From a virus (Duplodnaviria > Caudoviricetes), in IMG/VR virus record IMGVR_UViG_3300027808_000110, positions 1-30,281 of that record: a stretch of DNA of 30,281 nt; one strand, given 5' to 3'. Below the pieces are notes generated by a model. That model was not told where the DNA came from. It did not search any database and saw nothing but the letters and a program-made list of their open reading frames with translations. The position numbers were made by a program, and so were the translations under genes. Positions 2,497 through 21,336 of this stretch are shown here, in pieces (position 1 is the first letter of the stretch; each line of letters starts with the position of its first letter).

Positions 2497-2502
2497 ATGC
2501 AC

Positions 2503-2778
2503 ATGGCAGATCCGTTGTTACTTGCACAAGGTTGGTGGGATAGGGCGCAGCGCGACCCTTCTTACGTAACCACTTTACAGAAAAAAGTGGATGAAATTGA
2601 TGACGGGATCATCAATGGAACGGTTACTGGCGATATCGTGCAAGCTGGAAAAAACGGGTCTAACTACACCCAGCGCACCAACTATTCTCTTCAAGATCGA
2701 ACCACCGCAATGCGTTGGGCGATTCAATGTATCAAGTCGGGAATTAGACCGTCAAGAAACCGTAAAATCATCTTTTGA
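2503..2778 (+). CDS. Head-tail joining/head completion protein (gpW position)
   Basis: Small ORF between TerL and portal, the gpW position in lambda-like phages. ATG 2503 (MADPLL) preferred to the TTG at 2476. Confidence 0.55.
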   Translation: MADPLLLAQGWWDRAQRDPSYVTTLQKKVDEIDDGIINGTVTGDIVQAGKNGSNYTQRTNYSLQDRTTAMRWAIQCIKSGIRPSRNRKIIF

Positions 2779-2781
2779 TTT

Positions 2782-4296
2782 ATGTTAGTAGACCAATATG
2801 GAAATCCGTTAATTCGGCAAAGTTATAATCGAAGCACCGAAAACAGGGGCGTTGATCGTCCTTGGATTCCAACTAAGTTGGATAACATCGATAAACTTAT
2901 CCCTTCTTACGATAGGAACACATTGGTCGCAGTATCCAGAATGCTAGTTGAAAACTGGGGGCCGGCTAGAAGCATTGCTCGCCAAATCCCGATGTATTCA
3001 GTTGGCAAGGCATGGAAACCATCACTTGAGACTTCAGATGACGCAATCAAACTTGAAGCGGAATCTGTCATCCGCGAGCAGTTTTGCCGGATGGCTACGA
3101 TGAAGGGTGATGATCTATCGACAGTTCTATACCACATGGCTCATCTTTTGATCCGTGATGGAGAATGCTTTTATTTGCTAACAGAATGGCAAAGCGGATT
3201 CCCAGCAATCCAAATTATCCCTGCTCATAGGATCGGTCAGCGTGAAAACGCAATCAATCCGATCGAAGAAGGTGCTTACAGGGGATACACAATCAACGAA
3301 GGCGTTATTCGCAATAAATACGGGGTTGTTATTGCTTACCGGTTACTTGGGGAAACTGCGGACAAGGATCAAGATATCTCATCCTCATCGCTCAAGCACG
3401 TAATGGATTCGGATTACCCCGAAGCAAACCGTGGGTATCCAGCACTTAGCCATGCATTGAATGATGGACGCGATGCGTTGCAGGCTCACGAATGGGAGCG
3501 TTTGAATATGCTGGCGAGGTCGTCACATACGTTGATTGAGCATTCCGAGTCTGGAATCCCAGATGGTGACAGAACCAATGAATTCTTCAACGAAGCGGGT
3601 GGGGATAGCTCAAGCCCATCAAATTTGGGTATTACAACTAACACTTTGTTTGGCGGCACATACAAAACCGTTAGAGCCGGAACTGGATATAAACTGGAAA
3701 GCGTTAAGCACGACACACCTGGCGAAACATGGGAGTCATTTGGTGACCGCATGATCCGCAAAATGTGTGCTGGTGTGCCTTGGCCGTTCTCCTTTATCTG
3801 GGAAGGTTCTAGCCGTGGTGGTGGAACTGCCGAGCGCAGGGATATCATGCAGGCCCGCCAAGCTGTTGAGGATATGCAATCAATCATCGAAAAAGAAGCC
3901 AGATTGATTGTCGGATACGCCTACAAAAAGCTAGTCAAACTCGGACGAGTTTCAGACACAGCTGATTGGTGGAAATGGTCATTCAGCAAACCACCTAAAC
4001 TTACGGTCGATGACGGCCGAGTAACCAAAAGCAACCTTGAGTTGTGGAGAGCAGGCATCTTGAACGATGAAGACCTGCTCAACGACATGGGCAAAGACCA
4101 TGACGAGCATTTTAGAAGTAGATTTAACCGTGCCGCCGACAAAGAATTGATGTTTATCGAGGCGCAACAATCTAAAAACGTAAAATTGGATGAGCGATAC
4201 AAGGGTATGTTCACTCCAAACGATATGAAAGATGTCGATTCACCAATGGACGACGACACAACACAACAAGAAGACAATTTAGACGATGAGAATTGA
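2782..4296 (+). CDS. Portal protein, lambda family
   Basis: 504 aa; LIRDGECFY, IQIIPAHRI, EGVIRNKYGVVIAYRL, RGYPALS and W-x-x-x-x-P-P-x-L-T-V-D segments match Phage_portal_2 patterns; synteny. Confidence 0.92.
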   Translation: MLVDQYGNPLIRQSYNRSTENRGVDRPWIPTKLDNIDKLIPSYDRNTLVAVSRMLVENWGPARSIARQIPMYSVGKAWKPSLETSDDAIKLEAESVIREQFCRMATMKGDDLSTVLYHMAHLLIRDGECFYLLTEWQSGFPAIQIIPAHRIGQRENAINPIEEGAYRGYTINEGVIRNKYGVVIAYRLLGETADKDQDISSSSLKHVMDSDYPEANRGYPALSHALNDGRDALQAHEWERLNMLARSSHTLIEHSESGIPDGDRTNEFFNEAGGDSSSPSNLGITTNTLFGGTYKTVRAGTGYKLESVKHDTPGETWESFGDRMIRKMCAGVPWPFSFIWEGSSRGGGTAERRDIMQARQAVEDMQSIIEKEARLIVGYAYKKLVKLGRVSDTADWWKWSFSKPPKLTVDDGRVTKSNLELWRAGILNDEDLLNDMGKDHDEHFRSRFNRAADKELMFIEAQQSKNVKLDERYKGMFTPNDMKDVDSPMDDDTTQQEDNLDDEN

Positions 4297-5599: not shown

Positions 5600-6490
5600 A
5601 TGGCAAACTCCACCACCGGCATCCAAGATGACATCATCGCCCGTAGCGTCCTTCAAGGATTTACTGCTGCGATTGCACCAATGGCCGCCCTTAACACCCT
5701 GTTCTCTGACGCAGCCGCTAACCGTGGCGATCGCGTTTCCGTTCCACGTCTCGCATCCTCACTTGATGCTGCCGCAGACAAAGCTGTAGGCTCGGCTTAC
5801 ACCATCCAAGACATCGATTCCGATGCCGTTGAGATCGTTCTCAACAAGCACAAGTATGTTTCGATGGGTAACGACGATATCGAAGTTGCCAACAGTTCGG
5901 CACTTGTTCTTGAGCGTTACGGCGTTCGTAAAGGTAACCTACTCGCCAAAACCGTAGCACAAGACGTGTTCAGCGAAATCACCTTGGCTAACTTCGGTGC
6001 AGCCGCATTCACCGGCGCAGCATCTACCTTCGATGAAGATGATGTAGCTGACGTAGCAGATGTTTGCGACGACGACAATATGCCCGAAGACCGCTACCTG
6101 GTTCTCAGCAACGCTTACATCACCGCTCTTCGCAAATCTGGAGCAATCAAAGACACCTCTGGCTACGGATACAACGCCATCCAAACTGGCAATATCCCAA
6201 TGCTTCACGGATTCAAAATCATCCCATCGAACATCATCCCAGCAAACGGTGAAAACCTTGTTGGATTCGCAACCGATGGATCCGGCATCGCTGCTGCATT
6301 CCGCTATCTTGCTCCACTTGGTGGCAACAAGTATGACCGTGCTGAAGCTATCGTTGGCGAAGGTGGTATCACCCTCGGACTCCGCAGCTGGTATTCCGAA
6401 GACTTCGGTAACTACCGTTCCGTCATGGAGTGTGTCTATGGTTACGAGACTGGCATCGCAGCCGGAATCAAACGCCTTGTCTCCGCTTAA
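5600..6490 (+). CDS. Major capsid protein (HK97 fold expected)
   Basis: 296 aa after the scaffold; GDRVSVPR, IVLNKHKYVS, G-x-I-x-x-L-H-G-F-K-I and VYG motifs typical of capsid proteins; codon use rich in C-ending codons; strong hairpin downstream. Confidence 0.85.
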   Translation: MANSTTGIQDDIIARSVLQGFTAAIAPMAALNTLFSDAAANRGDRVSVPRLASSLDAAADKAVGSAYTIQDIDSDAVEIVLNKHKYVSMGNDDIEVANSSALVLERYGVRKGNLLAKTVAQDVFSEITLANFGAAAFTGAASTFDEDDVADVADVCDDDNMPEDRYLVLSNAYITALRKSGAIKDTSGYGYNAIQTGNIPMLHGFKIIPSNIIPANGENLVGFATDGSGIAAAFRYLAPLGGNKYDRAEAIVGEGGITLGLRSWYSEDFGNYRSVMECVYGYETGIAAGIKRLVSA

Positions 6491-6499
6491 TTCTTGAAC

Positions 6500-19854: not shown

Positions 19855-20064
19855 ATGAACTACCAACACATACTAGAACAAGACAAGAACGAGCGGAAAC
19901 ATCTTCGCTTTGTTAAAGCAATCCACGATCAAGATGGTCACACTTATCCTGCTTTATCCTTGCCGGAAAATTGGGAGAATGTCCGCCATGTTGTCGGCAA
20001 TCTTTACTTTGCTTGGGATGAAGATCCTCTGCTTGGTCAGATTTACCTTGCCGAGTATGATTGA
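19855..20064 (+). CDS. Hypothetical protein
   Basis: 69 aa ORF packed tightly in the operon. Confidence 0.6.
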   Translation: MNYQHILEQDKNERKHLRFVKAIHDQDGHTYPALSLPENWENVRHVVGNLYFAWDEDPLLGQIYLAEYD

Positions 20065-20101: not shown

Positions 20102-21307
20102 ATGTGGATACTACCAAAATCAATCATATCAGTTTATGTGCCGGATACGGCGGCATTGATCTCGGACTTAGCCGAGCAATCCCAAATCTGCGAACAATCG
20201 CTTTTAGCGAGATCGAAGCCTTCGCTTGCGCGAACTTGGTCGCAAAAATGGAAGCGGGACTCTTGGACGCAGCTCCTATCTGGACGAATCTTAAAACCTT
20301 CCCATGGTCAGAGTTTTGTGACAAAGTGGACATCCTCTCTGGAGGTTATCCCTGTCAACCATTCTCCGCAGCAGGAAAGCGACTTGGAAAAGAAGACCCA
20401 AGACACCTTTGGCCGTGGATCGCAGATGGAATTAGAATTATGCGCCCCAGAATCTGCTTCTTTGAAAATGTCGAAGGACACATCAGCCTTGGACTCAGAG
20501 AAGTCATCAGCGAACTGGAAAGCCTTGGTTATCAAACGACGTGGGGAATATTCTCAGCGCGTGAAGTCGGCGCACCTCACCAACGTAAGCGAGTGTTCAT
20601 CTTGGCCCACCGCAAAAGCGAGGGATTGGAAGGATACGATGGGTTGCTCGCTAGATGCTACGAATCCAGACGGGACTCATCGGAACAGGAGGGACAGGCT
20701 GGTTGGAGCAATAGTTGCGGAAATGCATGGCCAAGCCGCCCCGGTCAACCCCAGCACGGATGGGAGCCGCCTAGAGTCGTGGGCAACTCCAAGCACAATG
20801 GATCACATCAATGTAGTGAGGAAACCAGAGGATCGATCATCCGCAGCGAACAAAGGGGGATGCAAGAATCTGAGGGAGGAAGTTCATCAATGGGCGACAC
20901 CAAACACGATGGATCACTTGGACTGCCGGAGTGCAGAGGGAGTCATCAAGATTGCAACAGGAGCGAGGAAGGGACGATCAATGCCATCGAATCTGAGGGA
21001 GCAGGTAGATCCGCAGACTGTGGATATTTACCAGAAAACCAAGGAGGAGTCATGGGCAACTCCACAGACGAGAGATCATCGGAGCGGAGATACAGAGAGA
21101 TTCCAGAATCCAGATCGAAGCAAAAACCTAAACGATCAGATGCCAGTCCCGAACGGCAAACTAAACCCTCGCTGGGTGGAGACGCTGATGGGGCTACCGA
21201 TCGGATGGGTCATGCCGAGCTGTTCATTACCTCTGACAATCGCACCGACGAACTGCGACTGCTTGGCAACGGAGTTGTCCCTGCAACAGCAACCAGAGCT
21301 TTTATAG
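20102..21307 (+). CDS. Overlapping alternate-frame methyltransferase chain (beta-like)
   Basis: 401 codons open across the MTase; contains LNPRWVETLMGLPIGW (motif IX-like) and four W-[PA]-T-[PA] repeats. Confidence 0.7.
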   Translation: MWILPKSIISVYVPDTAALISDLAEQSQICEQSLLARSKPSLARTWSQKWKRDSWTQLLSGRILKPSHGQSFVTKWTSSLEVIPVNHSPQQESDLEKKTQDTFGRGSQMELELCAPESASLKMSKDTSALDSEKSSANWKALVIKRRGEYSQRVKSAHLTNVSECSSWPTAKARDWKDTMGCSLDATNPDGTHRNRRDRLVGAIVAEMHGQAAPVNPSTDGSRLESWATPSTMDHINVVRKPEDRSSAANKGGCKNLREEVHQWATPNTMDHLDCRSAEGVIKIATGARKGRSMPSNLREQVDPQTVDIYQKTKEESWATPQTRDHRSGDTERFQNPDRSKNLNDQMPVPNGKLNPRWVETLMGLPIGWVMPSCSLPLTIAPTNCDCLATELSLQQQPELL

Positions 21308-21336
21308 TCCTTATCAATCAACTACTAAACCAATAA
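20104..21336 (+). CDS. DNA (cytosine-5) methyltransferase, catalytic (alpha-like) chain
   Basis: GTG start; motif I SLCAGYGG, IV GYPCQPFS, VI ENV, VIII HQRKRVFI, X LRLLGNGVVP; no motif IX seen in this frame. Confidence 0.92.
   Translation: MDTTKINHISLCAGYGGIDLGLSRAIPNLRTIAFSEIEAFACANLVAKMEAGLLDAAPIWTNLKTFPWSEFCDKVDILSGGYPCQPFSAAGKRLGKEDPRHLWPWIADGIRIMRPRICFFENVEGHISLGLREVISELESLGYQTTWGIFSAREVGAPHQRKRVFILAHRKSEGLEGYDGLLARCYESRRDSSEQEGQAGWSNSCGNAWPSRPGQPQHGWEPPRVVGNSKHNGSHQCSEETRGSIIRSEQRGMQESEGGSSSMGDTKHDGSLGLPECRGSHQDCNRSEEGTINAIESEGAGRSADCGYLPENQGGVMGNSTDERSSERRYREIPESRSKQKPKRSDASPERQTKPSLGGDADGATDRMGHAELFITSDNRTDELRLLGNGVVPATATRAFIVLINQLLNQ

Follow-up and report, generated by a model that had tools for sequence, protein, structure and literature searches.

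Two open and selected reading frames in a 1.2-kb phage gene with C5 cytosine methyltransferase motifs

The methylase locus and its two chains

The window, meaning the whole stretch of DNA that was analysed, is a 30,281-base linear virus record with an estimated completeness of 66%, and was assigned by Pfam and PHROG profile matches to a tailed phage with terminase, portal, S49 protease and major head genes at the left, an amidase in the middle, and an exonuclease, helicase and primase at the right. The methylase gene is located among small genes before the replication block. Profile searches against Pfam and PHROG recognised no restriction enzyme gene adjoining it, and promoter and terminator scans gave chance-level results. 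Two same-strand frames occupy the gene exactly as a preliminary description had claimed, one from an ATG at 20102 to 21307 and the other from a GTG at 20104 to 21336, with their starts interlocked in ATGTG, and its claim that the second chain spans nearly the whole gene was likewise upheld. The features are given below; the motif labels I, IV, VI, VIII and X in alpha and IX in beta are those which we take to apply.

20102-20106, plus strand: paired start ATGTG, with the beta ATG at 20102 and the alpha GTG at 20104
20102-21307, plus strand: beta chain, ATG start, 401 aa, in the +1 frame relative to alpha; N-terminal half, four cassettes and a motif-IX-like segment
20104-21336, plus strand: alpha chain, GTG start, 410 aa; catalytic large domain, linker and motif X
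20134-20598, plus strand: alpha motifs I, IV (catalytic PC), VI and VIII, overlapping the beta N-terminal half, with both frames constrained
20134-20154, plus strand: alpha motif I, from sequence
20344-20367, plus strand: alpha motif IV, from sequence
20458-20472, plus strand: alpha motif VI, from sequence
20575-20598, plus strand: alpha motif VIII, from sequence
20603-20779, plus strand: beta cassette 1 (WPTAKARD...) and spacer, directly after alpha motif VIII; same cassette in P0003 and P0018
20728-20775, plus strand: conserved alpha element WPSRPGQPQHGWEPPR within the linker; columns 209-226 invariant or nearly so in 47 alphas
20780-20890, plus strand: beta cassette 2 (WATPSTMD...), same type in L042
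20891-21052, plus strand: beta cassette 3 (WATPNTMD...), same type in L009, related in phage C75C1 and a Lachnospiraceae locus
21053-21160, plus strand: beta cassette 4 (WATPQTRD...), same-type copy in none of the 49 other loci
21161-21208, plus strand: beta motif-IX-like segment LNPRWVETLMGLPIGW, from beta-frame constraint, position and register
21253-21279, plus strand: alpha motif X core, from sequence
21253-21333, plus strand: alpha motif X and C-terminal helix, from alpha-frame constraint; pLDDT about 90 at residues 391-410

The preliminary description had placed motifs I, IV, VI, VIII and X in one frame and had proposed a search of each frame against PF00145; all five motifs were found in alpha, residues 7-185 of which matched that family (E 8e-36) over profile positions 2-169 of 324 only. 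Alpha also matched PHROG 363 (E 1e-55). Its structure model was confident at residues 1-180 and 391-410, with pLDDT under 50 for most of 197-387, and compared with M.HhaI at Z 19.3 and rmsd 3.0-3.6 with 190-202 of 327 residues aligned, leaving about 130 residues of M.HhaI, about the size of its small domain, without a counterpart. Alpha thus has motifs I, IV (PC), VI (ENV), VIII and X in order together with the large-domain fold, the marks of a C5 cytosine methyltransferase.

Beta matched PHROG 1008, labelled DNA methyltransferase (E 7.5e-18), and 1900 of 2230 candidate proteins were found to be related to its residues 160-375. No family match was found for beta in Pfam or NCBIfam, no meaningful match to solved structures was obtained by sequence or profile, and an Atlas search returned viral clusters without names only. 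A one-cassette beta (L099) folded alone gave isolated helices and no compact model (pTM 0.29).

Alpha and beta queries recovered 39 and 52 viral loci, respectively, on partly shared contigs. Removal of duplicates, of three loci in which no motif I or IV could be scored and of four that lacked a start pair left 62, the window included. Setting aside seven cut by contig ends and five without the motif IX pattern left 50 complete loci. Start types among the 62 non-redundant viral loci were ATGTG (49), ATGACATG (10), TTGTG (2) and GTGTG (1), a count conditioned on the start-pair rule used, which four loci failed. Such a neighbouring codon was present at -2 or -5 in 8 of 214 control ORFs and at any of four offsets in 23. 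Remoter lineages had a start offset of +4 (ATGCATG) or +7 and a beta N-terminus that still read M-x(0/1)-W-x-x-(x)-P, as in MWILP, MTWLYLP and MAWCHVP, its Trp being in part forced because the alpha NTG precedes G. A paired alpha start together with that beta N-terminus was present in 36 of 40 bacterial-genome loci with the +1 frame open across motifs I-VIII. Of the shared ATGTG start first described, the closeness of the two starts was kept, within 2-7 nt (offsets -2, -5, +4, +7), while ATGTG itself varies. An upstream ORF ended on the methylase start in 27 of 61 loci and a Shine-Dalgarno-like word was present in 28 of 62; before the window start there was no such word, and the nearest upstream ORF stops 9 nt ahead. 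A single initiation region for both frames is likely, and the ATG and GTG starts could as easily give unequal amounts of the chains as the fixed ratio first proposed.

Several other observations were made in the window. The closest bacterial-genome relatives of the methylase were from Verrucomicrobiota, with Bacteroidota loci in the same supported group, a kinship which hints at a possible phage host. GTAC was nearly missing over positions 1-30281, with 6 occurrences on the two strands where 129 were expected, and GGCC was halved, a shortage that suggests host restriction at those sites. A Ser/Thr-rich ORF of 145 aa at 6060-6497, which may be due to chance, lies within the major head gene in its +1 frame, where 4 stops were seen against 9.8 expected. 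A contig of run X3 linked positions 19938 and 21353, as though from a relative without the whole methylase gene, by a weak match with a 33-letter side.

Open frames and frame-specific selection

Both frames were open to an extent well outside the redrawn sequences. With the alpha protein fixed and codons redrawn, the full overlap was expected to contain 9.6 stops in the +1 frame and contained none (0 of 5000 draws), the part under motifs I-VIII had 0 against 6.4 (synonymous redraws, P 0.0006), and with the beta protein fixed the alpha frame over beta 168-372 had 0 against 12.8. The longest off-frame open stretch was 24-149 codons in all 12 other long genes of the window. An assembly indel as the source of the second frame was considered and rejected, the contigs of the probable source run matching the locus with zero differences.

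Stops in the second frame of homologues had been named beforehand as a check, and none were found in the 50 complete loci, where both frames were open; summed over these loci, 337 stops were expected in the beta frame along alpha 1-165 and 602 in the alpha frame along the cassettes, and none was seen in either, although shared ancestry means that these sums are not independent draws. The +1 frame was without an early stop in 35 of the 36 scorable loci from the alpha query (39 found, 3 unscorable). Departures from the layout included motif X outside the alpha frame in L033, L034, L076 and L084, and an alpha that stops early in L032. The protein P0075 was examined as a single-chain form and rejected, being a chimera of the alpha N-terminus and beta C-terminus without motifs VI, VIII and X, probably owing to an indel.

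Selection ratios were estimated from disjoint close pairs, with the +1 frame of ordinary neighbouring genes (39 pairs) as the control, for which the two measures gave 1.3 and 1.5. The 26 pairs compared over alpha 1-160 gave an alpha ratio of 0.12 (0.10-0.16) and, beneath it, a beta ratio of 0.38 (0.28-0.52), or 0.43 (0.32-0.62) by the second measure, with no clear constraint on beta under alpha 81-120. For the 69 pairs drawn from the same cassette type, beta gave a ratio of 0.03-0.08 and alpha was near neutral. The middle of alpha, which forms the linker, was about neutral (0.7-1.6) with pLDDT under 50, while beta was constrained there; the linker element WPSRPGQPQHGWEPPR was nevertheless present in 49 of the 50 loci, positioned after 0-3 cassettes. 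In the IX-like segment (23 pairs) there were 0 beta-changing differences at 443 sites and 95 beta-silent differences at 262, with alpha free to vary, and in motif X, where the picture was the opposite, there were 2 alpha-changing differences at 413 sites and 88 alpha-silent differences at 303. The short stretch between IX and X was constrained in both frames. Constraint thus lay on both frames across motifs I-VIII, on beta alone in the cassettes and motif IX, and on alpha alone in motif X; the preliminary description had called for selection to be examined in both frames of homologues, and it was found to switch frame where the motifs do. The presence of two open frames under selection in the 1.2-kb gene, overlapping on the same strand with measurable selection in each, is confirmed, and since the selection is frame-specific it is very likely that both are translated and used.

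Cassettes and the motif-IX-like segment among relatives

Beta is more than the donor of motif IX that it was first taken for, as it also carries a strongly selected and shuffled cassette array that had been overlooked. Residues 168-353 are divided into four units, each of the form W-[PA]-T-[PA]-x-A-x-D ... L-x-x-[QA]-V. The 50 loci contained 226 cassettes, with 1-9 per gene and lengths from 26 to over 60 aa (median 37), that fell into 97 types at 70% identity and made up 48 different arrays. Thirty-nine of the 44 types shared between loci occurred in more than one context. Among 389 same-type pairs, 55 were at least 95% identical in cassette DNA with catalytic DNA at most 85% identical, down to 62%, and loci at least 97% identical in catalytic DNA had on average one third of their cassette types in common, with none in common in three of the eight such pairs. 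Cassettes are traded whole between phages. Of the twelve listed contig joints in four runs, eight started at the cassette 1 edge (20601-20615), and a single contig swapped out cassette 1 and kept 2 and 3, both weak lines with short sides. No cassette type was repeated within any of the 50 arrays (P 0.006), and deletion between identical copies could account for the missing repeats; some long betas (P0124, P0128) do repeat a cassette.

The segment LNPRWVETLMGLPIGW had been described as the missing motif IX in the second frame. Its register and position fit, as it gave a gapless alignment to motif IX of four single-chain enzymes and was the best match of the whole profile, but the profile score was not significant (E 0.69) and a second profile comparison gave no match to motif IX in beta. 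In gp4 of Gordonia phage Derg and in L139, L140, L142 and L144 the same IX-like segment belongs to the catalytic frame, some 20-40 residues ahead of motif X, and this location supports the assignment by position.

Other layouts were present among the relatives. The 80 bacterial-genome loci were scored as 41 two-frame, 3 split, 3 single, 1 other and 32 unclassified, and the three scored as single (L140, L142, L144) do have cassettes in the +1 frame. These three and L139, all in actinobacterial genomes (around 2500-3700), show a third layout with the IX-like segment and motif X in alpha and only cassettes in the +1 frame. Derg gp4 (L093:2007-3392) carries cassettes in both frames, with three between motifs VIII and IX of the catalytic chain and two in a +1 frame that is unannotated. 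The loci L107-L137 from alphaproteobacterial genomes represent a widespread form in which the starts are of the ATGCATG type and the arrays are nearly fixed, unlike the highly shuffled viral arrays. Betas of 712-1120 aa were seen in P0122-P0128, some with cassettes beyond the IX-like segment or with that segment repeated, including one fused to a PF12705 protein and P0122, in which the N-terminal half has a long insert. In a tree made by a quick method, with automatic labels that misfile some rows, 47 full-overlap rows and 4 unlabelled rows formed one group (SH-aLRT 96) apart from the nested and actinobacterial types.

With two frames overlapping over 1.2 kb, annotation routinely loses or mislabels one of the chains, and it had been expected that gene callers would drop one chain. 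This was borne out by the GenBank phages C75C1 and RcCWillis, where alpha alone is annotated, and by the window itself, for which the protein collection holds beta and lacks the exact alpha, so that in the window genome the dropped chain seems to be the catalytic one. On the other side, PHROG 1008 is a beta family and the Paenibacillus larvae phage Bloom has both chains annotated.

Proposed function and comparison with known systems

It is highly probable that the locus encodes a two-chain methylase. The full reading, to which we give a probability of about 0.6, is of one C5 cytosine methyltransferase in which alpha provides catalysis while beta supplies motif IX and multispecific, swappable recognition cassettes. 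Translation would begin at one or the other of two start codons that lie 2 nt apart within one initiation region. From the model and selection data, alpha would form the large domain, which binds SAM and carries out catalysis, and a largely unstructured stretch of about 190 residues, chiefly the cassettes read out of frame, would link it to motif X. By analogy with M.EcoHK31I and M.HhaI, beta may dock through the motif IX segment together with the helices of its N-terminus and thereby stand in for the small domain. Each cassette would recognise one target sequence, much as the recognition domains arrayed in tandem in multispecific methylases of Bacillus phages do, a proposal drawn from position and behaviour rather than sequence likeness, and the whole-cassette exchange described above might retune protection against host restriction. 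Heterodimer assembly, formation of 5mC and a role in anti-restriction are all expected under the full reading, and the swapped cassettes probably shield several DNA sequences from host restriction enzymes. We suggest more tentatively, at a little under even odds, that the gene belongs to a system, widespread among phages and prophages, that trades a library of DNA-recognition cassettes of about 37 residues, one specificity each, in the hidden frame and co-initiates both chains from one start site. The enzyme would then be programmable and multispecific, and its swappable recognition units would be the smallest in its class.

The cassettes of a two-chain methyltransferase need not be separate units of specificity, and could instead form a joint surface for relaxed or non-specific DNA binding or bind a protein partner. 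Neither sequence nor fold connects them with known recognition domains, arrays range from 1 to 9 units and a unit is repeated in some betas, all of which would suit such a role; but the variable residues are tightly kept within each type, cassettes move whole between genes with catalytic DNA only about 62% identical, and all 50 arrays are free of a repeated type, and we regard a joint surface as unlikely. An accessory or regulatory beta, with alpha methylating alone or with a host partner, draws on the actinobacterial relatives that hold the IX-like segment and motif X in alpha and have cassettes only in the +1 frame. The window alpha, however, has neither a constrained variable region nor motif IX, and in the available part of PMC3404938 the small domain of M.HhaI and M.HaeIII makes all specific DNA contacts, which leaves this role for beta highly improbable.

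Recoding would yield one chain from alpha motifs I-VIII by a +1 shift into the cassettes and IX and a shift back for X, as might be read from the start of cassette 1 directly after motif VIII and the dual constraint between IX and X. Two shifts are required, though, and slippery heptamers, the sole signal scored, were seen at one junction in 1 of 47 loci and at the other in none of 47; recoding also leaves unexplained the beta start, the conserved beta N-terminus and the selection on beta 1-160, as well as the stop-free alpha linker and its conserved element, and is considered improbable. The chance that the second frame is a by-product of alpha codon use or an assembly artefact is practically negligible: off-frames here can stay open for 140-150 codons, which calls for general caution, but the stop counts, the beta-only selection over 200 codons and the read support can be said to have refuted it already.

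The two-frame lineage is found in phages and in the genomes of several bacterial phyla. The window gene family offers a direct route to a question posed in 2015 for overlapped phage methylase genes, namely whether two chains or recoding are involved. If each cassette reads one sequence, then the array is a fast-moving anti-restriction repertoire and provides natural small recognition modules on a detachable chain that would be useful for targeted methylases.

The multispecific C5-methyltransferases of Bacillus phages, including M.SPR, M.phi3T, SPbeta MtbP and M.H2I, are single chains with tested specificities and recognition units of 38-57 residues, close to the cassette lengths given above. 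The window gene resembles them as a phage enzyme with several short tandem units that lie between motifs VIII and IX and are exchanged as modules, and differs in that its cassettes are on a second chain. A cassette profile gave no match to SPbeta MtbP, the only Bacillus phage member compared, and the likeness of WATPNTMD to MtbP AFTVNTID is by eye only.

Division of a C5-methylase over overlapping or adjacent frames is known from mycobacteriophage Corndog gp6/gp7 and M.AquI (PMC3404938, in the part available). Overlapped methylase halves in Corndog and other phages were described by Cresawn et al. 2015 (PMC4351075), where the portions accessible left two products or recoding undecided and noted no peptides found for gp6/gp7. 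In those systems, as far as these sources extend, IX and X are together on the second chain with a short overlap, whereas the window has X in alpha, a complete overlap, and so not both motifs on beta. Maminiaina gp84/gp83 has a Corndog-like layout and bears the same type of cassette sequence. Bloom gp56/gp57 (MH454077), both annotated as cytosine methyltransferase, share with the window a nested +1 beta, cassettes and an IX-like segment, and differ in that the Bloom beta begins well within alpha; the available text of the Bloom genome paper (PMC6070908) lists two methyltransferases and does not discuss the overlap. As far as could be seen from their accessible parts, PMC11855218 concerns an out-of-frame HNH insert and PMC5009743, PMC3025963 and PMC3706429 have no bearing on a two-frame methylase. 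Neither the full-length overlap nor the paired starts nor the cassettes were described in any paper found by the literature searches, which reached few subscription papers and do not prove absence.

The closest likeness claimed at the outset was to M.EcoHK31I of E. coli (YGGCCR), and the layout agrees, with a motif-IX-like chain (IX at E 0.69) in another frame inside the alpha gene and motif X in alpha. According to the parts available of PMC2836561 and PMC3404938, the M.EcoHK31I alpha has motifs I-VIII and X together with a predicted recognition domain, and its beta, the smaller chain, holds motif IX wholly in another frame; removal of the beta starts abolished activity, which beta in trans restored (PMC2836561, section 13). 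M.EcoHK31I was also sought in plasmids, and the three loci examined had ordinary single-chain enzymes. Likened through these papers rather than by aligned sequences, the window beta overlaps nearly the whole gene and starts 2 nt from alpha, and the selected variable region of the window consists of the cassettes on beta, the window alpha being without a recognition domain like the one predicted for M.EcoHK31I alpha. Our best reading is that the window gene differs from M.EcoHK31I in its full-length overlap, its paired starts and the apparent placement of recognition in beta.
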